From Eledone cirrhosa (Eukaryota), in contig OZ024745.1 of NCBI GenBank assembly GCA_964016885.1, positions 17,918,001 through 17,982,000 on the forward strand: DNA of 64,000 bases. The letters are read 5' to 3'. The position numbers were made by a program, and so were the translations under genes. Under the pieces are notes generated by a model, which saw only the letters and a program-made list of their open reading frames with translations, had not been told where the DNA came from and did no database searches. Positions 583-49,483 of the stretch are shown here, piece after piece. The stretch's first letter is position 1, and the number at the start of each line of letters is the position of its first letter.

Positions 583-3500
583 CTACAGGCTTATAAACAG
601 AGAAGGCCCAATCACTTGGGCCATTTTCGCTTCATTCACCCACCTTTCAGTAAATTTACTGGGGTGCAGTGCCTCTCTCTCCACCCTGATTCTCCTTCTA
701 AAGTGATACTTAAAGAATGGAATCAATTGTTGTCCGGAGAGAAAGGCATCTGTCCTCAGTCCTCTCAACCTCGTCCACCATATAACTTCTTTCACCATAG
801 CCACCGTACAGAGGAAAACCGCCTCTCTTTCGGTTTTGAAAGAGTCTGGCGGTTTGATCCTTACTATGGACTCGGCAGTCAACTGTATTTGTCCCATACG
901 CGACAGCAGTTGTTCTGCATAGTTCCACAGGTCGCTTACGCCCGGGCAGTGTACAATTGCGTGCAGAACTGTTTCAATGTCCTGCGCACATCTTGGACAC
1001 GTCCTCTTGGAAGGATCCCTGCCAGGGCGTCCGTGCCTGTAGATCTTGTCACGAACCGGTAGAGCTCCTCGGTAGCACTGCCAGGCCAGGGACCTCTGGA
1101 AGTTGTCCATAGGTCCCGGGCGGAAAGTCCTACCAAACATATTGGTGAGCTCATCGTCTTCGACGCCCAGAGTCTCTCCGAGCACGTCGTCGCCCTTGTA
1201 ACGTACAATCCCTCTATAGAATGTCGAAGTGGAGTCTCCACTGATTGCTGCGCCCGCTTGCCAGAGGACTGTGAGCGCCTGAGCGCATTCAATGTGCCAG
1301 GCGCCCATCGTTTTCGGTCTTTTCTTCATCCAGGACTGCAGCTCCGTTAGCGAGACGAGCTGTGGGAAAGCCTGTCTCACAAACGGTGCCCACACCCGTT
1401 GGGGGTCGGTGAGGAATACCTGGAGATGCCGCAGCCTCAGCGCATGTTTGCGCATCATCAGCCACGGCAGTCCCAGCCCTCCGTTGGAAGGGTGCTGACA
1501 GCAGACGGATCTCCTCACCAGCGGAGCCTGCTTCTTCCACAGAAACTGGAAGAGCATGCGTTCCATCTTGGCGAGGTGTTCACGGGGACAAGGCACGACA
1601 GTCAAGCGGTAGTAGATGACGGACGCTATGAAAGTGTTCGCCACCTCCGCTCGACCTTTCAAGGACAGTTTGCACTCTGCCCACTTCTGAGTGAGTGCAA
1701 ACACCTTTGCCGTGACCTCGTTCCAGTTTTTCTCCACCTGGAGGTCTGGACCGAACCAGACCCCGAGCAATTTCACCGGTCCGTCCGTCCAGCGTCCAAC
1801 GACGCTGTCGGCCGTCATCGGTTTGCCTCTCCACGTACCGAGTTGCAAACCGACAGACTTGTCTGGGTTTAGTTTTGCTCCCGTCAGCGTTTCGTATTCT
1901 TTCAGTATGTTGCCGATCACCCCGATTTCTGAGGTGCTCGACACCATTACTGTCACGTCGTCGGCATAAGCCGACGCCGCTTTGCGCAGTCCCGGTTCTA
2001 GGGGGATGCCCTGCAACAGCTCCAATTTCCGCAGTAGTGGCTCTAGAGTCAATACATACAGAATGGAGGAGAGAGGGCATCCCTGTCGAATGGAACGCGT
2101 GATTGCGAACGGCTCCGATAGGTAGCCGTTCACCTTGACCCTCGAGCAGATGCTGGTGTGCATCACCTCGATCCATCCTCTGAACACGGGACCGAAACCG
2201 GCCGCCTTGAGAACCGCTTCCAAGTATCGATGGTCGACCCTATCGAATGCCTTAGACTGATCCAAGTTGATCAGAGCCCCACCGAAGCCGGGTTTACTAC
2301 CCACCCTCTCTATGATGTATCGCATGAGGTGGAGGTTGTCGTGTATGGACCTGGTCGGGATTGCACACGTTTGCGCTTTCCCTACCAAGTTCTCGACGAC
2401 AAGCGCCAACCTCGTCGCTAGCACCTTGGCCAAAATCTTTAACTCTGTGTTGAGCAGAGTTATGGGCCTGAAGTTGTTAATTTCATCCCCCTTGTTCTCG
2501 TCTTTCCTGATAAGCGTTACTACGCCCTTGCCTGCAGAACTGGGAATTCTCCCGTTCTGCTGCCAATTGCAGTAGACGGCTTCAAGGACGCCAGAGAACA
2601 AGTCCGGCATGCCTATGTAAAATTCGTAGGGTAGACCATCTAGACCGGGTGACTTGCGTTTCCCGCAGCGGCCCAGAGCGTCCCGTATCTCAGTGTCTGT
2701 GATCGGTCTTTCGCAGAACTCGGCGTCCGTGTTCGAGAGACGCGGCAGGCCGTCGAGGTATGAACTAAAGTCCATTGCCCCGTTCGGCTCACCGTCGTTC
2801 TGCTCAAACAGTCGCGCAAAGTGCCGCTGAAAGGCCGCGCACATTTGCTTGGGGTCAAGTAGCACGCGTCCGTTTTGGTCTTTCAAAGACCGAATCGTGG
2901 ACTTGTTGCCACTTTTTGCCTCCGCCACTCGGGCCCAGCTGACAGCTTTCGCTCCTTCGTTTCCTAGAGCTCGTGTTTTGCTTCTGACCACGCAGCCTTC
3001 GTGTTTCGCATCGAAGAACTGGTCCAGTGCCGTTCTCGACGCTAACACTCTAGCCGCGTTGCCACTTCTAAGTGCCTCCTCTACCTTGGCTACTAGTTCT
3101 CTTTCTATTCTGTTTTTCTCTAAGGCTAACTCTCTGCTATACCCTATCGATTCTATTCTAATTGCTTTCTTGAGAGAGTACCACCATCTATTGTTGACGA
3201 TGGCTCCCGTTAACTGTTGCTTGACTAGTTTACTTATCCGTTCACTGTAAGCTTTACGTGCCGGCAACGACACGTTCAGCTTCCAGTATCCGGGACCCTG
3301 TCTATGTATTCTATCACGGTTGACTAAGCAGACGACTAACTTGTGATCTGAATAGGCAACCATGTGCATTCGTGGACAGCTTAACATATCCTTGTCCCTT
3401 TCTCTAATGAAGAACCTATCTAAATACGATCTAGATGTCCCACTGCGGTTTACCCACGTCCACTGTGGTGCAGTCGGGAAATCCAGTCGATACCTATCGG

Positions 3501-3860
3501 CCAGTTGGAATTGGCCGATTAAAGTTTTGAGGCTGTTGCACCCCGCTCTACTGGGACATGCTCCCACATAGTCCCATCGTGCATCTAGGATACCATTCAA
3601 GTCCCCCACTAAAAGTAAGGAGCGAGACGTTCCCAGAAAAGACTCTAGACGCTTAAAGAAGTCTGGCCGTGATTGCGATTGCCCGGTCGGGGCATAAACG
3701 GCCACCAGTCTGAAGGCTCCACCTCCGATACTGTTCACGTCTAGGACTACCAGTCTACCCTCCGGGTCCAAGTGTACTTGCTGTACTCCGACGTCAAGGT
3801 TCTTCCGAAACATAACAGCCACTCCACCTCCACCTCCTGGCTGACAGAGAGATGCGTAGA
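583..3860 (-). CDS. Tx1 ORF2 (AP endonuclease, reverse transcriptase, C-terminal CCHC finger); uninterrupted but missing the first ~55 APE residues
   Basis: Motifs VYAP, GDLN, SYLDR, SDH (APE); KSPGLDG, FRPITLLN, LDQSKAFDRV, RQGCPLS, YADD (RT); CPRC-x8-HAIVHC. Homology to the copy-2 APE starts abruptly at YASLCQ. Confidence 0.9.
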
Positions 3861-5237
3861 TCAACTGTGGTGTTGTTTGTATTGTTGTTTGTGTCTGTGG
3901 TTGTGTGTTGGTGTTGGTGATTGGAGTTTTGGGGGTTTTGTGGTGTCTCTTTTTTTTGTTTTTTGGATTTCCGCGGTTCTCCCTCTTCTTCACTTAAATA
4001 AGGAGAAGCAGCTTCATCCGTCGATGAATAATCATCGTCAGGTGTGTGGGGTAAGGGTATGTTGTGTGGTGGTGGTGGTGTTTCGGTATGTGTGTTTGTG
4101 GTAGTGTTTGATGGAGTGGGATGGAGTGGGGATGTGTTCTTCAGGGGTGTTGTCTCTGTTTTTTCTGTTGTTGTTGGTTGAGTGTCTGTTTGTTTTGGTG
4201 TGGTTGCTCGTTTCGTCTGTCGTTGTACTTGTGGTGGTGGTGGTGGTTGTTTTGGTGTTGGTGTTGGTAATAGCGTTTTTTTTATGATGTTGCTGTTGTG
4301 TGTTTGTGGACAAGAGGCTTTTAGGTGAGATCTGCTACCACAGCGAAAGCAGTGAAATTTTCGTCCTTCTACCGAAATGTTTATTTTGTTGTTATTATCA
4401 ATAACGACTCTTTCGGGTATTTTGGAGATTCTCTCCGGTTTCATTTGCAACAGAATCTCCAAATCGGTGCCCGCCCACCTTTGTCGAATGGATTTTCGTA
4501 TCGAAAGTATTATGTCTGTTTCTGGCTCTACGAAGCCAGCCAAGATCCACCAGATGTTAATGCTTGGAGGTATGTTTTTTATTTTTATCTTTTGTGTCCT
4601 TTTCCCCATGTATGTAGGGAAAAAGGTGCATGCTTTTGACACTATTGGTGTCACAGAGTTTTTTGGGGCCAGTGACTCGCTTTTAAACAGTACGGAAACA
4701 CTTCCGTACTGTTTTCCTCGCTGGAGAAAATCGACATTTCCTAGAATCTCCTTGAAAGAATCTTCTATATCTGACTGATTAACAAATGTCGGTTTTCTTG
4801 ACGAATTTGACACAGTCCTAAAAGTGACTGATCGGCGGTTTGTGTCTTCCTTTATTTCAAGGGGTGAGTTAATTCTAAACCCACCTCTTTCTTCGAAAGT
4901 TACACATTTTCTCCCTTGCTGGAGCATATCTCTTGCGTTGGAGATATCAAGATTTATAAAATCTTGTTTCTTGTTGACTGTGTCAGCAAAAGACATTTTC
5001 TTTTTTTGTGTAATGTTGTTGTTAATAATGATGTTATCGTTGTTGGAAATTTTATGTGTAGATGTATCTGTAGAGTTGTTGATGTCTTTTTCATGTGTAT
5101 GTATGTCAATGGGTTTTTTTGCCGTGTTTTCCCGTGTGTTATTGTCATTTTTCTCCGCTTCGGCGGTAGAAATTGTAACATTTTCAAATGTTGATATATT
5201 TTTTTTCTTTTGTGACAGTATCTATGGCAACGTCCAT
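3794..5237 (-). CDS. Tx1 ORF1 (gag-like nucleic-acid-binding protein)
   Basis: ORF 3794..4996 has the zinc knuckle CFRCGSRSHLKASC and a Pro/Thr-rich tail. The frame stays open upstream; the probable ATG at 5237 is offset by one base in an A-run near 5200. Confidence 0.75.
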
Positions 5238-5859: not shown

Positions 5860-8800
5860 CTACAGGCTGATATAGAGAGAAGGCCCATTCAGTCGGGCCA
5901 TTCTCGCCACTTTCACCCACCTTTCATGAACCTTGCTGGGGTAGAGCAACTCACTCTCCATTCTGATCCTTCTTCTAAAATGTTACTTGAAAAAAAGGAC
6001 CAGTTGTTGGCCGGAGAGAAAAGTGTCTGACCTCAGCCCTTTCAACCTCGTCCACCATACAAACCTCTTTCGCCATAGCTATCACACAGAGGAAAACCGC
6101 CTCTCATTCGTTTTTGAAGTGGGGAGGCGGTTTGATCGTGACAATATACTCGGTGGTCAACCGGATTGGTCCCACCCGCGACAGTAGTCGTTCCACATAA
6201 CCCCACAGGTCAGCAACGCCCGGGCAGTGTACGACGTGTGCGCAACGGTTTCCTCGTCGCGCACGCATCTCGGGCAGATCTTCTTCGAGGGGTCCCTACC
6301 CGGGTGCCCGTGTCTGTAGAGCTTGTCCCGAACGGGTAGAGCTCCTCGGTAGCACTGCCAAGCCAGGGACTTTTGGGAGTTGTCCATCGGTCCCGGGCCA
6401 AACGTCCTACCAAACAGACTGGCTAGCTCGTCTTCCTCCATGCCCAGAGACTCTCCGAGAGCGTCGTCGCACTTGCTGCGCACCAACCCTCTATAGATTG
6501 TTGAGGTTGAGTCGCCACTGATTGCTGGATCCATTTGCCCGAGGGCCGTGAGCGCCTGGGCACATTCAATGTGCCAGTCACCCACTTTTCTCGGTCTTTG
6601 CTTGACCCAGGATTACAGCTCGGTGAGTGAGACGAGTCTCGGAAAGGCTTGCCTCACAAAAGGGGCCCACACCGGCTCTCCGGTCAGGAATACCTAGAGG
6701 TGCCGTAGCCTTAATGCGTGTCTACGCATCGTTAGCCACGGCATCCACAGCCCTCTGTTCGAAGGGTGTTGACAGCAGATATTTCTTCTCACCAAAGGGG
6801 GCCGCTTCTTCCAAAGGAATCGGAAGAGCGCGCGCTCCATTTTGGCGAGCGTTTTCGCTGGGCAAGGCGGTAGTAAATGACGGACGCTATATAAGTGTTC
6901 GCCACCTCCGCTTGACCTTTCAGTGATAATTTGCACTCGGATCACTTCTGGGCGAGTGCAAACACCCTGCCCGTTACCTCGTCCTAGTTTTTCTCCATCT
7001 GGAGGTCCGGTCCAAACCAGACCCGAGCAGCTTCACCGGTCCCTCCGTCCAGCGTCCGACGACGCCGTCGGAGGGCATCGGTTTGCCTCTCCACGTTCCG
7101 AGTTGCAAACCGACGGACTTGTCCCGGTTCTTCTTGGCTCCTGTAAACCTTTCGTATTCCTCCAGTAATGTGCCGATCTGCCCGATTTCCGAGGCGCACG
7201 ACACCATTACTGACACGTCATCGCTGTAGGCCGACACCGCTTTCCGCAATCCCGGTTCCAACGGGGTTCCCTGCAACAGCTCCAACTTTCGCAGTAGTGG
7301 CTCGAGAGCCAGCACATACAGAAGGGAGAAAAGAGGGCATCCTTGTCGGATGGATCGCGCGATTTGGGACGGCTCCGAGAGGTAGCCTTCACCTTGACCC
7401 TCGAGCAGGTGTTGCAATCCAGGCCCTGAAAACGGGTCCGAAGCCTGCCGCTGCGAGCACCGCATCCAGGTACCGATGGTCGACTCTATCGAACGCCTTA
7501 GATTGATCCAAGTTGATCAGAGCCCCACCAAAGCCGGGTCGTTCCCTACCCTCTCTACAATGTATCGCATGAGGTGGAGGTTGTCGTGCATGGACCTGGA
7601 CGGGACTGCGCATACCTTTACTTCTGCCTCCAGGTTCCCGACGACAAGCGCCAACATCTTGGCTAGCACCTTGGCCAAAAGCTTAAACTCTCTGTTTAGC
7701 AGGGTTATGGGCCTGAAGCTATCTATGTCATCCCGCTTGGTCTCGTCCTTCCTCACCAGCGTAACTACGCCCTTGGTCACAGAACTGGGAATATTCCCCT
7801 TCTGTTGCCAGTTGCAGTAGACCACCTCGATGAGATCGGATAACAAGTCCGGCATCGCTACATAAAGTTCGTATGGTAGACCATGAGACCGGGAGATTTG
7901 CTTTTGCCGCATTGGCTCAGCACTCCCCCTATTTCAGCGGCTGAAATCGGCCTTTCGCAGGACTTCGCCTCCCCGTCCGAGAGCCGCGGCAGACCGTCGA
8001 GGTATGGACCGAAATCCATGGACTCACCCGGCCCGCCGCCCCTCCCGAACAGTCGTGCAAAGCTCCGTTGAAAGGCCACGCACATCCACTCAGGTTCAAG
8101 GATCACGCGTCCATCCTGGTCCTTCAAAGACCCAATCGTAGACTTGTTTCCACTTTTTGCCTGTCACTCGGGCCCAGCTAACAGCTTTGGCTCCCTCGTT
8201 ACCCAGAGCACCTATTTTACTCCTGACAACGCAGCCCTCGTGCTTCGCGTCAAAGAACTGGTCTAGGGCCGTTCTTGACGCCAGCACGCCGGCCACGTTG
8301 CCACTCCTAATCGCCTCTTCTACTCTATCTATCAATTTTCAGTTCTATCCCTATCTGATGCTAATCCCTGACTAAAACCTATCGATTCTATTCTAATTTC
8401 TCTCTGGAGAGAGCCCCACCACCTGCTGTTGAAAATTTCCCCCGTCAACCGCTGCTTGACTAGAGTGCTAATCCGTTTACTGTAAGATTGTTTGTCGGTA
8501 AGGACAAGTTTAGCTTCCAGTAACCGGGTCCTTGACTATGGGTTCTATCAAGGTTTACCACTCCGTTCACCAACTTGTGAACCGGATAGTCAACCATGAA
8601 CATTCGTGGACAGCTTAATATGTCCCTATCCTTATTTCTAACTATGAACCTATCTAGGAACGACTTAGATGTTCCGTTGCGATTAGTCCACAGCCACAGT
8701 GGCACAGTCGGAAAATCTAGTCGATATCTATTGGCCAGATCAAATCGGCCGATTAACCGTTTGAGGCTGTTACACCCCCCTTTATCGGGACATGCCCCTA

Positions 8801-9257
8801 CATAGTCCCAACGTGCATCCAGGATACCATTCCAGTCCCTCACTAAAAGCAAAGAGCGAGACGTTCCCAGAAAAGTCTCTAGGCGCTGGAAGAAGTCCGG
8901 TCGCGGTGTCCCAGATGGGGCATACGCTGCCACCAGCCTGAAGGCTCCGCCTTCACTACTGACGACATCTAGAACGACCAGTCGACCCTCCGGGTCCAGG
9001 TCTACCTTCCGTGTTGCGAGGCACAGGTGTTTTGGCAGCAGAACGACCACCCCGCCCCCACCGCCCTGCTGACAGAGAGATGCATAGGTCTCAAAGTCGT
9101 CGAAGATGGGGGCCAGTTGGTGCTCGCTGCTGATCCTGGACTCACAAATAGCTATCACATCCATTCTGTGCGACCTGAGGTCATTTAAGAGTTTGCCCTG
9201 CTTCCAGGTCATACCCAGGCCGCGCACATTTAAACATCCAACTCTTATAACAGCCAT
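5860..9257 (-). pseudogene. Tx1 ORF2 pseudogene (APE-RT-CCHC) with multiple frameshifts
   Basis: Collinear ORF fragments 8460-9257, 8096-8335, 7858-8127, 7517-7912, 7389-7613, 6974-7465, 6694-6945 and 6157-6585 all align with copy-1 ORF2. Confidence 0.9.
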
Positions 9258-9289
9258 GTTGGTGGTGAAGAGTCTAGAGTGGAGAAAAA

Positions 9290-11126
9290 AGAAGACACCT
9301 ACCTGTCCTTCTCCTGGGGACCAGGCTGCACAATTTCCATGGGGGTGTCGGCGCGGTTGTTTGGTGTGTGGGGGATGGGGGGATCAGTGTGTGGTGGGGT
9401 GGGGGTGTTTGGTGGGGGAGGGGTGTCTGGGGTGGTGGTGGGGAAATATTTCAAGAGGACGTGGTTGCTAAGTCTAGTACAGGGGTGCCCCACGTCCTCG
9501 GGAAAGTTCTGTTTGAGCATTGCGTAGGTGTCCCTTGGGACCCTAATCATTTTTAAATGCGGTTTAGTCGCCGCGTTGGTGAACATTTTCCCTTCGGTTT
9601 CTACCGAAGGGTCTTTGTCTATTGTTTTCACAATTGTTTTGTTGTTTATGTTGATGTTTGTATCCTGTTTTTGTTGTGTTCTGTTTGTTTTTGTTTGTTG
9701 TTCTTGTGTGTGTTTGCGTTTTGTAGTATGTGTTATGTTTTTGGGAGGGGGGGGGGTTGTGCTGGTGGTTGTGTGTTTGTTGCATTTTTGTTAATGTGGT
9801 GCCTTCTTTTGTTTCTTTTTGTCGGTTGAAAGGGTTCTCCCTCGTCGTCACTGGGTGAGGTTGATAAGGGGTCCTCGTCCGTGTTGTTGGGGAGGGGTAT
9901 ATTTGGGGGTTTTGTTGTGGTTGCTTTTGTATTTGTTTTAGGTGGGGAGGGCTTGGGTGGGACAGTGTCTTGTGTTGTTATTCGTTCGTGTTGTTGTGGT
10001 TGTTGTTGTGGTGGTGGTCGTGGTGTTGGTGGTGGTCGTGGTGGTGTTGGTTGTGTTGTTGTGTGTGGGATGGGCAGAGCGTCTTTCTTTTTTTGTTGGG
10101 GTGGGGCGGGGGGAATTTAAAAGGGGACAGGAAGCCCTCAGGTGACCACTTCTTGAACAGTGGTAGCATGCAGGCCGCCTGCCCTCAACAGAGATGTTTA
10201 TGAAGGCGACTCCAACCAGGGACACACGCTGCGGTATTCTTTCTATCTGTTCTGGTCTCATTTGAACCAGAACCTCAAGGATATTGCCGCCGAATACGCC
10301 CCCGGTGGATTCGTCTATCGAAAGGATTGTGTCCTGATCTTCTAAGAATCCTGTTAGCACCCACCAAATGCTCGCATCTGGCCTGATGCCCGAGATTCTT
10401 ATCTTTTGAGTTCTTTTCCCCCAATATGTGGGGAAACAGGTGTATGTTTGGATACAATTGGCGACACAGAATATTTCCGTGCCACCAATTCATCTTGCAT
10501 TAAAACAGATATGCCTCCATACAGTTTCCCTTTCTGTATGAAAGCGATATCCTTCCAGGCACTACTTAGGACCACAATTTCGCTTTGAGACAATTGAGCC
10601 GGTTTCCTAGTCGTGTTCGAAACTGCCCTAAAGATTACGGTCCTGATGATTGTGTCCCTTCTAATTTCTTCGGGGGAGGTACTTGTGAATTCCCCACCTT
10701 CCCCAAAAGTTACACAATTCCTTGCTTCTTTCAGCAATTTCTTGGCATTCGAGATGTCCAGTGCTTTGTATGTCTGCGTTTCTCGGACCGCCTGTGCGAA
10801 GGAGACTGCAGCTGTGGGTCCGTTTTCTTTCGTGTTGTTATCATTGTTGTTGTTATTCGTGTTGGCTTGCTTTTTTCGTTTGCTGGTGTTGTCATTATTG
10901 CTGTTGTTGATTGTGCTGTTATTGTCATTGTTGCTGTTGTTGGTTGTGTTGTTATTGTCATTGTTGTTCTTGTTTGTGTAATTGTTACTTTTGGGGTTTT
11001 CACCCATTTCCACAATTCTTTTTTATTCCGTGGTGTCTTTTGCGGGAGTGAGGAGGGAAGGCTTACAGCGTTGTGCTGCTACCCTCTCTCTATCACTTTC
11101 CGGGGGGGGGGGGGACATGCGTCATA
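9290..11126 (-). pseudogene. Tx1 ORF1 pseudogene
   Basis: SFAQAV...LDISNAK...CVTF matches copy-1 SFADTV...LDISNAR...CVTF; INISVEGR-x3-C-x2-C-x4-H-x4-C knuckle present. Confidence 0.8.
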
Positions 11127-25953: not shown

Positions 25954-26233
25954 TATGTATGTATATATATATATATATACATATATATACTTACATATAT
26001 ATATATATATATCTTCAGTTATACCATTTACGTGGTTTTGTCTTTGCGTGCAATTCTTCCCCACGCTCCACATATGACGTATTATCTTCGTTTTTTCCGT
26101 TCAATGCAAGAGAACGTCTCTATGAACCACCTAAGAGAATATTAGTCTACGACTTCTTGTGTATGACACACAAAAACAAGATGGCGTAGGACAGAACAAA
26201 GGAGAGGCAAAAAGACAAAGAAAAGAATCCCCA

Positions 26234-26277
26234 GTCACTGAAGAGCGTCACAGAATGTGTGACGAAAGAACTTTGAC
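26234..26277 (+). ncRNA. Degenerate type I hammerhead motif
   Basis: gtca-CTGAAGA-gc-gtcaca-gaatg-tgtgac-GAAA-gaac-TT-tgac. Confidence 0.5.
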
Positions 26278-26640
26278 AATATATAAACAATCATCTGGTT
26301 GTCGAACCAACCAACCAACCGGAAATTTATTAATTCCTAAATTTATAAATTTATTATAATAAATTGAAGTGAAAGCGTTTGGTGCGTTTGTTTCTTATTG
26401 GCAACATGACCCTTCCAAAGTATAACAATATCGGTTTCAACACACGTTTTCAGATAAAGAATCTTGCTAAACAAATTCAGAAACGAAATATATATATATA
26501 TATATATGATATATATATATATATATATTTTTTTTTTTTTCTTATATTTATTTGCGTGTGTGAATATGTAGAGGAGTGCATTTATGTATGTGTATGCATG
26601 TACGTGTGTATATATGTTTGATTGTGTGAATGTATGTATG

Positions 26641-26701
<61 letters not shown>

Positions 26702-26917
26702 GTTAAAGATGTACATCCATATATGTATACTGAAATACTAGTATGTATATGAATACACACACGTATACATATGTAGATGTACCAAGTTTTTTCACTGGTC
26801 ACTTTACTGTGAGTGGCCAGCTATTCTGTATGTAAACACACAGACAAACCGGTTTTTAGAGTCATACTGGTTTTTGAGGAAACACCTTTCCTCTATTCTC
26901 CAGAAAGCCAGACAAGG

Positions 26918-26962
26918 AATATTGAACTAGTTTCGTTGTTGTTACAACTCATCAGCAATATT
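26918..26962 (-). ncRNA. Type I hammerhead ribozyme (identical copies at 27385-27429, 27852-27896)
   Basis: Reverse complement reads aatattg-CTGATGA-gttgt-aaca-acaac-GAAA-ctag-TT-caatatt. Confidence 0.88.
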
Positions 26963-28506
26963 TACCCATCTTCCGGCCTCTCTAGAGAATCGTAAAAGCA
27001 CATATCGTTATATGCTTTTTCTATGAAAATTAGTAGTGGGCAGACTAATTTGCATAGAGTGTGAGTAAGTACCGGTTCAACGGAGACGATAAAAACAAAT
27101 AACGAAACGAAATTAAATTTCGTTTCGTTTGTAACTCACTTTTGTATGACTGACGCTTAAACAATTAAGTTAAAGATGTACATCCATATATGTATACTGA
27201 AATACTAGTATGTATATGAATACACACACGTATACATATGTAGATGTACCAAGTTTTTTCACTGGTCACTTTACTGTGAGTGGCCAGCTATTCTGTATGT
27301 AAACACACAGACAAACCGGTTTTTAGAGTCATACTGGTTTTTGAGGAAACACCTTTCCTCTATTCTCCAGAAAGCCAGACAAGGAATATTGAACTAGTTT
27401 CGTTGTTGTTACAACTCATCAGCAATATTTACCCATCTTCCGGTCTCTCTAGAGAATCGTAAAAGCACATATCGTTATATGCTTTTTCTATGAAAATTAG
27501 TAGTGGGCAGACTAATTTGCATAGAGTGTGAGTAAGTACCGGTTCAACGGAGACGATAAAAACAAATAACGAAACGAAATTAAATTTCGTTTCGTTTGTA
27601 ACTCACTTTTGTATGACTGACGCTTAAACAATTAAGTTAAAGATGTACATCCATATATGTATACTGAAATACTAGTATGTATATGAATACACACACGTAT
27701 ACATATGTAGATGTACCAAGTTTTTTCACTGGTCACTTTACTGTGAGTGGCCAGCTATTCTGTATGTAAACACACAGACAAACCGGTTTTTAGAGTCATA
27801 CTGGTTTTTGAGGAAACACCTTTCCTCTATTCTCCAGAAAGCCAGACAAGGAATATTGAACTAGTTTCGTTGTTGTTACAACTCATCAGCAATATTTACC
27901 CATCTTCCGGCCTCTCTAGAGAATCGTAAAAGCACATATCGTTATATGCTTTTTCTATGAAAATTAGTAGTGGGCAGACTAATTTGCATAGAGTGTGAGT
28001 AAGTACCGGTTCAACGGAGACGATAAAAACAAATAACGAAACGAAATTAAATTTCGTTTCGTTTGTAACTCACTTTTGTATGACTGACGCTTAAACAATT
28101 AAGTTATAGAGGAAAGGTGTTTCCTCAAAAACCAGTATGACTCTAAAAACCGGTTTGTCTGTGTGTTTACATACAGAATAGCTGGCCACTCACAGTAAAG
28201 TGACCAGTGAAAAAACTTGGTACATCTACATATGTATACGTGTGTGTATTCATATACATACTAGTATTTCAGTATACATATATGGATGTACATCTTTAAC
28301 TTAATTGTTTAAGCGTCAGTCATACAAAAGTGAGTTACAAACGAAACGAAATTTAATTTCGTTTCGTTATTTGTTTTTATCGTCTCCGTTGAACCGGTAC
28401 TTACTCACACTCTATGAAAATTAGTCTGCCCACTACTAATTTTCATAGAAAAAGCATATAACGATATGTGCTTTTACGATTCTCTAGAGAGGCCGGAAGA
28501 TGGGTA

Positions 28507-28551
28507 AATATTGCTGATGAGTTGTAACAACAACGAAACTAGTTCAATATT
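28507..28551 (+). ncRNA. Type I hammerhead ribozyme (identical copies at 28974-29018, 29441-29485)
   Basis: aatattg-CTGATGA-gttgt-aaca-acaac-GAAA-ctag-TT-caatatt: 7-bp stem I, 5-bp stem II, palindromic CTAG stem III. Confidence 0.88.
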
Positions 28552-29774
28552 CCTTGTCTGGCTTTCTGGAGAATAGAGGAAAGGTGTTTCCTCAAAAATC
28601 AGTATGACTCTAAAAACCGGTTTGTCTGTGTGTTTACATACAGAATAGCTGGCCACTCACAGTAAAGTGACCAGTGAAAAAACTTGGTACATCTACATAT
28701 GTATACGTGTGTGTATTCATATACATACTAGTATTTCAGTATACATATATGGATGTACATCTTTAACTTAATTGTTTAAGCGTCAGTCATACAAAAGTGA
28801 GTTACAAACGAAACGAAATTTAATTTCGTTTCGTTATTTGTTTTTATCGTCTCCGTTGAACCGGTACTTACTCACACTCTATGCAAATTAGTCTGCCCAC
28901 TACTAATTTTCATAGAAAAAGCATATAACGATATGTGCTTTTACGATTCTCTAGAGAGGCCGGAAGATGGGTAAATATTGCTGATGAGTTGTAACAACAA
29001 CGAAACTAGTTCAATATTCCTTGTCTGGCTTTCTGGAGAATAGAGGAAAGGTGTTTCCTCAAAAACCAGTATGACTCTAAAAACCGGTTTGTCTGTGTGT
29101 TTACATACAGAATAGCTGGCCACTCACAGTAAAGTGACCAGTGAAAAAACTTGGTACATCTACATATGTATACGTGTGTGTATTCATATACATACTAGTA
29201 TTTCAGTATACATATATGGATGTACATCTTTAACTTAATTGTTTAAGCGTCAGTCATACAAAAGTGAGTTACAAACGAAACGAAATTTAATTTCGTTTCG
29301 TTATTTGTTTTTATCGTCTCCGTTGAACCGGTACTTACTCACACTCTATGCAAATTAGTCTGCCCACTACTAATTTTCATAGAAAAAGCATATAACGATA
29401 TGTGCTTTTACGATTCTCTAGAGAGGCCGGAAGATGGGTAAATATTGCTGATGAGTTGTAACAACAACGAAACTAGTTCAATATTCCTTGTCTGGCTTTC
29501 TGGAGAATAGAGGAAAGGTGTTTCCTCAAAAACCAGTATGACTCTAAAAACCGGTTTGTCTGTGTGTTTACATACAGAATAGCTGGCCACTCACAGTAAA
29601 GTGACCAGTGAAAAAACTTGGTACATCTACATATGTATACGTGTGTGTATTCATATACATACTAGTATTTCAGTATACATATATGGATGTACATCTTTAA
29701 CTTAATTGTTTAAGCGTCAGTCATACAAAAGTGAGTTACAAACGAAACGAAATTTAATTTCGTTTCGTTATTTG

Positions 29775-29822
<48 letters not shown>

Positions 29823-33779: not shown

Positions 33780-35258
33780 TGTTTCTTTTATTTGCCACCA
33801 GGGCATCAAAAGTGGGACAAGTACAATGGGGGGAGTTTACAAAACAAGGCGTCCTCAATAAGGAGGAGGCAATAACAATATATAAAAATAAAATAAAATA
33901 TAACAATAAATAAAATTTATAACAAAGTCCTCAATAGAGAGGAGGCGCCTTGGGGAGTCGCACACACCCCCGAAAAAAGTGTGCAACCCTTCTCCTCAGG
34001 AGCACAGAGAAGGGGTGCTCCCTTGGTCTTTCATCTTCCTCACCTATAGTCTGATGTAGAGTGAAGGCCCATTCACACGGGCCATTCTCGCCACTTTCAC
34101 CCATCTTTCATAGAAACGGCTGGGGTGCAGCACCTCTCTCTCCATCCTGATCCTTCTTCCGAAATGATATCGGAAGAAACGGACCAGTTGTTGGCCAGAG
34201 AGAAAGGTGTCTGACCTCAGTCCTTTCAGACGCGTCCACCATACAAACTCTTTCGCCATGGCTATTACGCACAGAAACACCGCCTCTCCTTCGTTTTTGA
34301 AGAGGGGAGGCGGCTTGATCGTTACAATAGACTCGGTGGTCAACCGGATTGGTCCCACCCTTGACAGCAGTTGTTCGACATAACCCCACAGATCGGCAAT
34401 GCCCGAGCAGTGTACCAATGCGTGTGCAACGGTTTCCTCGTCGCACACGCATCTGGGACAGATCTTTTTCGATGGGTCCCTACCCGGGCGCCCGTGTCTG
34501 TAGAGCCTTTCTCGAACGGGCAGAGCCCTTCTGTAGCATTGCCAGGCCAGGGACCTCTGGAAGTTATCCATGGGTCCCGGGCTGAATGTCCTACCGAACA
34601 GGTTGGCTAGTTCGTCTTCCTCCATGCCTAGGGCTTCTCCGAGGGCGTCGTCGCACCTGCTAACCACCAGCCCTCTATAGAATGACGAGGTGGATTATCC
34701 ACTGACACTCGGGTCCGCCTGCCAGAGAGCCGTGAGCGCCTGGGCGCACTCGGTGTGCCAGGCGCCCAGTTTTCTCGGTCTTTGCTTGACCCAGGATTGC
34801 AGCTCGGTGAGTGAGACGAGTCTGGGAAAGGCTAGCCTCACAAACGGAGCCCACACCGGTTGACCGGAGAGGAATACCTGGAGGTGCCGTAGCCTTAATG
34901 CGTGTTTACGTATCATTAGCCACGGCATCCCCAGCCCTCCTTTCGAAGGGTGTTGACAGCAGATGGATCTCCTCACCATAGGAGCCCGCTTCTTCCAAAG
35001 GAATTGGAAGAGTGCGCGCTCCATTTTGGCGAGCGTTTCCCTTGGGCAAGGCACAACGGTCAGGCGGTAGTAGATGACGGACGCTATATAAGTGTTCGCC
35101 ACCTCCGCCCGTCCTTTCAGGGACAGTTTGCACTCGGCCCACTTCTGGGTCAGTGCAAACACCCTGTTCGTCACCTCACCCCAGTTCTTCTCCACCTGGA
35201 GGTCTGGTCCGAACCAGACCCCGAGCAACTTCACCGGGCCCTCCGTCCAGCGTCCGAC
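33779..35258 (-). mobile_element. Tx1 copy 3, 5'-truncated (1.5 kb), in (GATA)n
   Basis: ORF2 C-terminal part (VGRWTEGPVKLLG...CPRC...GPSLYIRL) and 3' UTR are similar to copies 1 and 2. (GATA)n at 33726-33778 and 35259-35326. Confidence 0.93.
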
Positions 35259-35326
<68 letters not shown>

Positions 35327-35893
35327 TAGAAAAGAATGAAATGAAATTTCGTGTCTCTCTCTTAGTAGGGCTGATACTTAAATATAAGTATGTATACCTA
35401 CATACATATATGTATACAGACGTACAGTAGTATGCATATATATACATACATGCACCCATATCTATATATATATATATATGTACGTATGGGTTTACCGAAC
35501 ATTTATTATAATGCTCTGTTTGTCTGTAAACAAACAGCCCGCATTAAGCCGTACAGTGTTCGGCAACCATCGTTGCCCTTTTGTTCAACACTGACAGACG
35601 AATGATGTACTAGTTTCAAGCTTATTAGCTATCGTCAGCATCGTATATCTTCCTGTCAGATGATTGAACGTTTGAAAGTATATACTTTCCTTATGCATAT
35701 TAACGGCAGAGCAGCCTAATTTGCATATCGAGGGCGTTAGTCGGCTGGGCACACCGAAAACGATAAATGGAAAAGAATGAAATGAAATTTCATTTCTCAC
35801 TCTTAGTACGGCTGATACTTAAATATAAGTATGTATATGTACATATATATATGTATACAGATGAACAGAAGTATGTATATATATACATACATG

Positions 35894-39242: not shown

Positions 39243-40855
<1,613 letters not shown>

Positions 40856-47916: not shown

Positions 47917-49483
47917 CTAGTAGTAAAGCCCGGCGTTGCTCGGGGTCGCTCAGTAGCTGTGTTAAAGTTACAATGTTAAGTTTCTTTTTTGGCTTAAAAA
48001 CTGTAGTGTCTACTGTGCAGACTTGCATGTGGTGTTTTTGATTAATATTCCCTCAACCAACAATATGCCTTATGAAGTTAAGAAAACATAACGATAACCC
48101 GAATGTTATAACAAAAGAGGATGCTGGGGATAAAAACTGCACTGGTTATTTATTAACAAAGATCGAAAATGTAAACACTGCAACGCAGAGAAAAACATTA
48201 GCGTAACCAAATTATCAGTTATGTCTGTCTGCACGCCTATATCACCTCTCTGCACGACTGTCTGTCTGCACGCCTATATCACCTCTCTGCACGACTGTCT
48301 GTCTGCACGCGTATATCACCTCTCTGCACGACTGTCTGTCTGCACGCGTATATCACCTCTCTGCACGACTGTCTGTCTGCACGACTGTCTGTCTGCACGA
48401 CTGTCTGTCTGCACGACTGTCTGTCTGCACGCCTAACGAAATTTACAGATACATATATTTTAAATAAACTTATATAATTTTTGCTTCTTTTTACGAAATA
48501 TTTGCTTGTTTTACGTAGTCTTTAAATAGACTTTTTTTCAAGTAAAAATATTGTTTTAAAAGGCTTTTAAATGGAAATGAAGCAAAACGGAAGCTTAGTG
48601 TTCGAACTGATGAATTTTGCAGGTCAAAATTTTGCTGGCTCGACAACTGTTCGTGTATTGTGTTAATGTCATTTTAAACGCTGAGAAAGCCAGCGTAATT
48701 TTTTTTATTTTTGCACGCAGAAAATGTAAGACGCTCAATGTAAACAGAACAAAGGGAAATAACTCGTCACTTACGCTCAAAAATCGATACATTAGATTCG
48801 ATTTCGTCACATAGGGTGGGTCAATTTGAAATATTTCTTTTCTGATGTCTTCGCTAGGGCTCAATGTACAAGTATAGCAATTTCAGTGCAATTCCGTCAG
48901 AGATTCTAAGAGGAGATGTGTGCCAAAAATCGATAGACAGACAGAAAACCACAACTTTATATATAGATGACATAATCAAAAACAAGAACTTATTTGAAAA
49001 TTTATTTGACCGATGGTTCCGCCGGACCTTCATCTATAAGTGTAGCAATTTCACCGAAATTTGAACGTACGGTTTAAGAGGAGATGTGTGCCGAAGATTT
49101 TAGTAGACAGACAGACAACCTCAGTTTTATATATATAGATGACATAATCAAAAACAAGAACTTATTTGAAAATTTGTTTGACCGATGGTTCCGCCGGACC
49201 TTCATCTATAAGTGTAGCAATTTCACCGAAATTTGAACGTACGGTTTAAGAGGAGATGTGTGCCGAAGGTTTTAGTAGACAGACAGACAACCTCAGTTTT
49301 ATATATATAGATGACATAATCAAAAACAAGAACTTATTTGAAAATTTATTTGACCGATGGTTCCGCCGGACCTTCATCTATAAGTGTAGCAATTTCACCG
49401 AAATTTGAACGTACGGTTTAAGAGGAGATGTGTGCCGAAGGTTTTAGTAGACAGACAGACAACCTCAGTTTTATATATATATA
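47917..49483 (-). mobile_element. Non-autonomous Helitron with internal minisatellite and tandemly reiterated 5' end
   Basis: Minus-strand 3' end: hairpin cccgagcaacgccggg, then CTAG|T. 5' TCTATATATAT termini at ~48967, 49139 and 49311 (172-bp period). ctgtctgtctgcacg minisatellite at 48225-48432. Confidence 0.75.

Follow-up and report, generated by a model that had tools for sequence, protein, structure and literature searches.

A head-to-head hammerhead retrozyme family of Eledone cirrhosa: paired start sites and an A-to-G footprint that suggest copying of RNA circles by a Penelope-like element

A 64,000-nucleotide stretch of Eledone cirrhosa DNA (assembly GCA_964016885.1, contig OZ024745.1, positions 17,918,001 to 17,982,000 of the forward strand; hereafter the window) contains a head-to-head array of 467-bp units, each with a type I hammerhead ribozyme, inside a (TA)n tract. 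The array was inserted very recently and belongs to a non-coding repeat family that carries hammerheads and numbers over 2,000 insertions. Almost certainly it is a retrozyme mobilised by the enzyme of a Penelope-like element (PLE), as a preliminary description of the window had proposed and as the family, the layout of its ends and its hybrids with a PLE now support. As read from genomic sequence, an ADAR-edited, self-cleaved 467-nt RNA circle was probably copied by the PLE enzyme into (TA)n from both ends. The kind of element and the PLE layout are known; what is new is genomic evidence on the copying mode.

The array and its family

Features of the array are listed in Table 1; unit position 1 is the first base 3' of the predicted ribozyme cut. 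The earlier count of 3.0 + 3.6 head-to-head copies of a non-coding 467-bp unit inside (TA)n is borne out, with three substitutions in 3,087 nt (27444, 28417 and 28599) and no open reading frame (ORF) of at least 200 amino acids within the array. The ribozyme sense lies on the minus strand in the left arm and on the plus strand in the right arm, and the PLE-type tail is terminal on the right arm only. The local hairpins listed previously are real: folded as a circle, the unit reaches -151 kcal/mol, far better than shuffled sequences (z = -12.6 for the ribozyme strand and -5.1 for the other strand; 60 shuffles). The identical register in which the left arm starts and ends, considered as a clue to mechanism, is a coincidence, since the outer end is fixed family-wide and inner ends are spread over the unit.

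Further genomic copies flanked by (TA)n, as anticipated, are abundant. A 21-nt pattern spanning the junction of the long (A) outer end with (TA)n has 2,080 exact genome matches against none for the reversed control, and the pattern for the short (B) end has 802 forward matches, reverse counts being inflated by overlapping matches. A DNA search of the animal's own 3.0 Gb genome, with 40 of 91 candidates scored, gave 33 loci among the matches listed, including this array (similarity-selected loci). An A-selected sample consists of 88 stretches covering the first 89 of 100 listed A-end places. Each of these stretches carries a member of the family, and the subfamilies represented have about 88, 94, 97 and 99% identity with the unit in the window; arms range from ~10 nt to 19.5 units. 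Multimers are dispersed at many loci, most sampled copies being head-to-head. The host's haemocyanin fits an octopod: one exon gives its highest score, 855 bits, with the octopus single-unit chain 1js8, compared with 734–738 bits for the corresponding squid units and about 500 for those of gastropods.

Two fixed start sites, paired in each insertion

Nearly every insertion is head-to-head with both ribozyme-sense 3' ends in (TA)n, and these outer ends lie at two fixed unit positions ~70 nt apart: A at 303 (variants 297–303) and B at 229–234 (some 222–228). The similarity-selected loci comprise 26 A+B pairs out of 33 (20 assigned automatically, 6 by eye), one B+B pair and six interrupted or single-armed insertions. 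Among the 89 A-selected insertions, 82 were resolved and 7 run off the stretch; 66 of the 82 are A+B (63 automatic, 3 by eye; two represent one duplicated locus), none is A+A, and the remainder are 2 PLE hybrids and 14 single-armed or truncated copies. When sites were selected by the B end instead, an exact A partner stood head-to-head within 20 kb at 36 of 65, and 20 stretches fetched for the other B sites (5 sites fell outside) contained 15 variant A ends, 2 B+B pairs and 3 single-armed copies. Thus, about a hundred insertions pair one long and one short start site near-strictly. Five minimal insertions (L097, L102, L132, L198 and L200), in which one or both arms measure only ~10–65 nt, still have one A and one B end.

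There is no correlation between the lengths of the A and B arms (rho 0.15, n = 82): the A arm is the longer in 52 pairs and the B arm in 30, with extremes of 3,629 versus 19 nt and 76 versus 1,641 nt, and central joins differ between loci, mostly as small overlaps or short fills. As either arm may be the longer, fold-back synthesis is ruled out and an assembly artefact practically so. Outer ends at the ribozyme cut site, also considered, are ruled out by the positions of the A and B ends. Double priming at two sites is very probable, and the paired fixed ends support the earlier suggestion that priming from both target ends produced the inversion.

A probable single edited template per insertion

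Haplotypes are numerous in the family, yet within an insertion every unit, in either arm, carries the same one: in 10,404 positions covered at least twice per arm at the 33 similarity-selected loci, there is no arm-fixed difference. Alignments of the same loci reveal no recurring indels or added bases at the unit joins at the cut site.

For the analysis of changes between insertions, haplotypes of 122 insertions were reduced to the 81 with at most 120 unknown positions and, after removal of one duplicate, to 80. Polarity was taken from a maximum-likelihood tree with parsimony states, the two root branches being excluded. Among 108 locus-fixed changes on terminal branches, read on the ribozyme strand, A-to-G outnumbers T-to-C by 49 to 10 (p = 1e-7). 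The imbalance persists without the hyper-edited locus L149 (36 versus 9), in a strict set with at least three passes on both arms (24 versus 4 of 49) and in a tree-free count (28 versus 7 of 72). In contrast, unit-private singletons are symmetric (A-to-G 40, T-to-C 36 of 319), as are private changes in the 29 youngest arrays (9 versus 6 of 57, in 113,838 bases). The A-to-G excess is thus ~39 among locus-fixed and ~4 among private changes. The absence of fixed changes at the A site was left unused, because the loci were chosen by that motif.

The A-to-G changes have a marked context. They fall at UAG in 16 of 70 events, compared with 8 of the 151 A's (p = 6e-7), and have a 5' U neighbour in 34 of 70 (p = 0.004). 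The hottest sites, unit 346 (28890) and unit 425 (28969), are UAG triplets in the inferred ancestral state. Events are clustered, with 13 of 32 neighbouring events no more than 6 nt apart (2.9 expected), and the affected A's tend to sit in predicted stems (mean modelled pairing probability 0.75, versus 0.60 for all A). At L149, a single branch carries 13 A-to-G changes within unit 315–433. ADAR-type deaminase loci are present in the genome, and the context matches the neighbour preference of metazoan ADAR (PMC9989829). An ADAR origin of the excess is the reading that we hold with good confidence.

Editing is stochastic per molecule, so that linear multimer templates would place edits in single units. 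Edits that appear at once in all units of both arms point to repeated copying of one edited monomer, or of clonal copies of it; the simplest template of this kind is a circle. A circular monomer template is accordingly likely, and the proposal of copying round a 467-nt circle gains support from the single haplotype shared by both arms. Clonal sister circles from RNA-to-RNA replication may also have served as template. HDV-like and viral RNA genomes undergo A-to-I editing by ADAR. As regards a viroid- or HDV-like (hepatitis delta virus-like) replicon, there is no T-to-C excess on terminal branches and no hammerhead core on the opposite strand.

The hammerhead ribozyme

The array contains six type I hammerheads, three per arm and one per unit. 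Each is composed of stem I (AAUAUUG/CAAUAUU), CUGAUGA, a 5-bp stem II, GAAA, a palindromic ACUAGU stem III and a GUU triplet, so that at the level of sequence the reported intact hammerhead per unit is present, core and stems, in all six copies. Rfam model HH9 scores 36 bits (E = 1.1e-6), below its gathering score of 52; a scan at the gathering threshold gave no match in the array. No CUGANGA..GAAA core was found on the opposite strand of the unit; for a ribozyme of opposite polarity, types other than the hammerhead were covered by the Rfam scan only.

The 16-nt ribozyme core has none of the 208 lineage changes and 10 of the 319 unit-private changes (Fisher p = 0.008). Copies that spread have thus retained the hammerhead intact, which is what one would expect if the intermediate is produced by cleavage. 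Across the 80 haplotypes, one stem II pair covaries (41 A-U, 38 U-A); 44 haplotypes have GUU as the triplet and 35 have GUC.

Selection on base pairs outside the ribozyme was also considered and is unsupported: non-A-to-G changes at strongly paired sites keep the pair in 6 of 30 fixed and 24 of 130 private cases. Two individual unit pairs, 33–48 and 36–45 (window 28577–28592), show compensatory changes from A-U to G-C. For pair 33–48, the tree places U-to-C first and A-to-G second, that is, an A-C mismatch repaired by an edit-type change.

Relationship to Penelope-like elements

It is characteristic of PLEs that a truncated copy is inverted and that one end carries a tail (PMC3846280, PMC8557442), and the tail lies between two internal reverse transcriptase (RT) start sites, both target strands being cut and extended in vitro (PMC11167929). 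The fixed outer ends ~70 nt apart correspond to this tail signature, and the head-to-head inversion, already described for PLEs, is accordingly less surprising. Any target-site duplication would be hidden in the (TA)n flanks.

In the genome, 10,597 GIY-YIG candidates were counted. Four PLE families were read; their proteins combine an RT with a C-terminal GIY-YIG nuclease preceded by a CxxC motif, the Pfam GIY-YIG domain (PF01541) is matched in three of the four, and we read them as Neptune-type. Three of these families, PLE-a, PLE-b and PLE-c, end in (TA)n at long and short sites that are paired head-to-head and lie ~65, 55 and 40 nt apart, respectively. Retrozyme/PLE hybrids account for two of the 89 A-selected insertions, both with PLE-c: L115 joins a retrozyme A arm to 2.4 kb of PLE-c that stops at the PLE-c short site, and in L155 the partner of the retrozyme A arm is an arm ending in the PLE-c long end. 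Since both hybrids involve PLE-c, this family is the candidate partner (n = 2). The suggested involvement of a PLE enzyme is thus supported by the hybrids and the PLE-like ends, but not by clear homology between the unit and the sampled PLEs. The window itself has a head-to-head 3' non-coding end of PLE-c in (TA)n at 39357–40852, whose left end is the short one and whose right end is the long, tailed one.

Proposed mechanism and alternatives

In the mechanism that we propose, arrays would be transcribed, and their hammerheads, probably acting as dimers via the palindromic stem III, would cut out monomers that are ligated into 467-nt circles. ADAR would deaminate A's in the hairpins of the circle. 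A PLE RT/GIY-YIG protein would cleave a (TA)n tract on both strands, and the resulting 3' ends would each prime on the same circle at A and B, each RT running round it for an independent distance. The two cDNA ends would then be joined by microhomology or a short templated fill, every inosine being fixed as G in all units, and long arms would later be expanded by DNA-level duplication. We lean towards the more specific form in which one edited circle is copied by two PLE RTs at once, each from its own fixed start, with ADAR as the main mutagen (~45% of new locus-fixed changes).

Several observations weigh against this mechanism. GUU ranks below GUC as a hammerhead triplet (GUC occurs in 35 of 80 haplotypes). 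The active form of the monomeric hammerhead is absent from the predicted minimum-energy fold, which is consistent with action as a dimer via a palindromic helix III (PMC4209133). A PLE hammerhead was not needed for insertion in vitro (PMC11167929). The A-to-G asymmetry is missing from internal branches (A-to-G 21, T-to-C 19, G-to-A 19 of 89), where polarity at recurrent sites is uncertain, and the UAG excess is largely due to two recurrent sites: of its 16 events, at 5 distinct sites in all, they supply 13. Four private A-to-G changes occur at UAG, compared with no T-to-C in the mirror context, and one unit of L039 has two private A-to-G changes, a hint at some non-monomer templates. Four long arrays (L183, L100, L156 and L046) have variants common to a subset of units, which suggests that DNA-level duplication later lengthens long arrays. 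Inner ends are mildly enriched just downstream of the cut (25 of 227 at unit 1–30, 12.8 expected; 5 at unit 1–5, 2.2 expected, p = 0.07), so that some templates may be linear or stalled. Comparison of the unit with 30 GIY-YIG loci and 12 long-ORF PLE loci gave only TA-rich noise, and none of the four PLE families sampled from the 10,597 GIY-YIG candidates shares clear sequence with it. Finally, the PLE-c tail is ~40 nt, compared with ~70 nt in the retrozyme, and one of the two hybrids is long+long.

Some of these observations would fit templates other than an RNA circle. A linear read-through transcript of an existing array could be used by the PLE in double priming, with later DNA-level duplication and gene conversion; this is unlikely. 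It would account for the long arrays with subset-shared variants and the few unit-private A-to-G changes at UAG, and a PLE has used unprocessed RNA in vitro (PMC11167929). Editing of a multimer, however, should yield private A-to-G changes, yet the private counts are balanced (40 versus 36) and the locus-fixed counts are not (49 versus 10); moreover, edits are common to the inverted arms of short young arrays (24 of 49 in the strict set), and the ribozyme core is spared in propagating lineages. Distinctly unlikely, in our judgement, is a single ribozyme-cut linear monomer re-entered repeatedly by RT jumps from the 5' to the 3' end, or a DNA circle made from one monomer, although one edited RNA would still be the ancestor and single-haplotype arrays would be explained equally well. 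Jumps on a linear monomer would also fit the inner ends near the cut, five of which lie at unit 1–4. End-to-end jumps by RTs are usually imprecise, which counts against this route, and the cut-site joins at the 33 loci carry no recurring indels or added bases. Related animal retrozymes, furthermore, accumulate as circles (PMC7229834), and the fixed PLE-type start sites point to RNA-templated priming.

The remaining alternatives concern the footprint and the inversion. Errors of a polymerase, the PLE RT or RNA polymerase II, could replace ADAR as the source of the A-to-G bias and leave the rest of the mechanism standing. A-to-G is a common RT error, internal branches show no asymmetry and the evidence comes from DNA alone, but such errors would first be unit-private, and the 29 youngest arrays have 9 A-to-G and 6 T-to-C among 57 private changes. 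Clustering, UAG preference, predicted stems and the 13-change branch are hallmarks of ADAR, and we regard polymerase error as very unlikely. Lastly, the palindrome might be an artefact of assembly or of fold-back in a long read, or the product of one cDNA that folded back on itself. Among the contig pieces listed for four runs (most pieces lie outside the listing), none crosses the exact junction at 28106. Nevertheless, the two arms are out of phase with each other, outer ends fall on the two fixed positions of the family at about a hundred loci, central joins differ, arm lengths can be more discordant than fold-back copying permits, and contigs of run X1, possibly the assembly's own sample, contain four other head-to-head joins. 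An artefact is thus scarcely conceivable, and the inversion can be taken as genuine, as first described.

Related repeats and other features of the window

Table 1. Features of the array and loci of the sister family. Positions refer to the window unless a locus name precedes them; TRF, Tandem Repeats Finder.
Feature	Position	Strand	Remarks
Left (TA)n target tract	26633..26696	.	TRF
Left arm, 3.02 units, 1,411 nt = 3 x 467 + 10	26696..28106	-	Outer end = short (B) start site, unit 229
Type I hammerhead, copy 1	26918..26962	-	
Type I hammerhead, copy 2	27385..27429	-	
Type I hammerhead, copy 3	27852..27896	-	
Central head-to-head junction	28105..28107	.	Unit 220 joined to unit 29, 1-nt shared A
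Right arm, 3.59 units, 1,676 nt	28106..29781	+	Outer end = long (A) start site, unit 303
Type I hammerhead, copy 4	28507..28551	+	Predicted cut after 28544
Hairpin-rich unit segment 315–433, the richest in A-to-G events	28859..28977	+	
Type I hammerhead, copy 5	28974..29018	+	Predicted cut after 29011
Type I hammerhead, copy 6	29441..29485	+	Predicted cut after 29478
PLE-type tail, unit 230–303, between both start sites	29708..29781	+	With 12-bp hairpin 29741–29767
Right (TA)n target tract	29779..29815	.	TRF
Sister retrozyme family	L050 127–2577; L065 8427–10000; L035 7110–8155; L091; L101; L153; L169; L199; L202; L216		

A sister retrozyme family, also in (TA)n, has a ~423-bp unit that is 62–69% identical to that of the window, with the same ACUAGU stem III; its short end is homologous and its long end lies ~50 nt further on. 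A further related hammerhead-bearing repeat with a longer period is head-to-head and ~75–83% identical to the sister family (L193, 4277–6998; L187, 4947–6264). At 26226–26290, about 400 nt to the left of the array, lies a hammerhead-like motif of another kind (CUGAAGA, stem, GAAA). L119 has a nearly identical copy of it, and it is probably the end of another PLE family.

Runs X4, X5 and X6, compared with window 27831–28296, contain a near-identical unit at low depth under three other organism labels. Six runs, kept as contigs, were listed as containing the sequence, none of them as an RNA run. Contigs of four of these were examined, and unit-to-unit joins occur in all four. A closed 467-nt loop of one haplotype is present in X4 and probably in X6; a tandem array or a circle fits it equally, and it was not used.

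Elsewhere in the window, an apparently intact ORF2 of a long interspersed nuclear element (LINE) at 583–3993 on the minus strand encodes 1,136 amino acids (endonuclease, RT, zf-RVT). It is overlapped upstream by an ORF at 3794–5221 on the same strand, and degraded relatives lie at 8460–11022 and 34044–35543. A 172-bp tandem repeat (3.4 copies, 96% matches) occupies 48907–49481.

Comparison with known systems

The family resembles the animal non-LTR (lacking long terminal repeats) retrozymes of coral, mussel and axolotl (PMC7229834) and of vertebrates (bioRxiv 10.64898/2026.07.22.740005) in its non-coding tandem units of low GC content, the lone type I hammerhead that each unit carries, with a helix III that is weak and palindromic, its highly structured unit and its co-occurrence with PLEs; the unit length of 467 bp is within the reported 51–972 bp. 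Circle-templated reverse transcription by PLEs is a stated hypothesis in PMC7229834 and PMC7761336, and a PLE origin of retrozymes has been argued (bioRxiv 10.64898/2026.07.22.740005). Head-to-head arrays, two fixed starts, (TA)n targeting, PLE hybrids and genomic editing footprints, in contrast, do not appear in the accessible parts of the animal retrozyme papers, where PMC7229834 raises editing only as a possible cause of circular RNA heterogeneity. Nor did the unit yield any pseudo-LTR (pLTR) homology to the sampled PLEs. Our literature search, which covered few subscription journals, yielded no account of cephalopod retrozymes, of retrozyme arrays that are head-to-head and have paired start sites, or of ADAR footprints left in the genomic copies of either retrozymes or PLEs.

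With PLEs that have a C-terminal GIY-YIG (Neptune-type; PMC8557442, PMC3846280) and the anole Poseidon element studied in vitro (PMC11167929), the insertions share the inverted 5'-truncated copy, a tail at one end only, microsatellite or AT-rich targets, microhomology at 5' joins, two internal RT starts that bound the tail, and cutting and extension of both target strands. Unlike PLEs, the retrozyme has no ORF, its tail is ~70 nt rather than 30–40 nt, and both arms are multimers of one haplotype. Poseidon in vitro shows no strand difference in start site and does not require its ribozyme (PMC11167929), whereas here long and short sites are almost strictly paired and the ribozyme appears to be selected.

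A-to-G clusters in double-stranded RNA, with 5' U and 3' G favoured and 5' G disfavoured, are likewise typical of ADAR editing of young repeats (PMC9989829). Unlike editing of repeat RNA, the changes described here are fixed in chromosomal DNA, in every unit, and inherited by the lineage. In L1 twin priming, both target ends prime cDNA on one RNA, and the product is a head-to-head inversion joined at microhomology, but the second priming site varies and adjoins the join. Here, by contrast, the two sites are fixed, and where the join falls does not depend on them.

Implications

Stochastic edits shared by all units of an insertion act as barcodes of a single template and so bear on the rolling-circle step, hitherto only hypothesised for animal retrozymes. 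The origin of tandem and inverted PLE structures has been called undefined (PMC8557442), and the near-strict pairing of long and short sites refines the two-site result obtained with Poseidon. The genome alone makes both open points testable, and the hybrids name a candidate PLE partner. The comparison of fixed with private A-to-G changes can be applied to any retrozyme-bearing genome. The host belongs to a lineage known for heavy RNA editing; if the proposed mechanism is true, the family would be a natural case of A-to-I RNA edits turned heritable in germ-line DNA.

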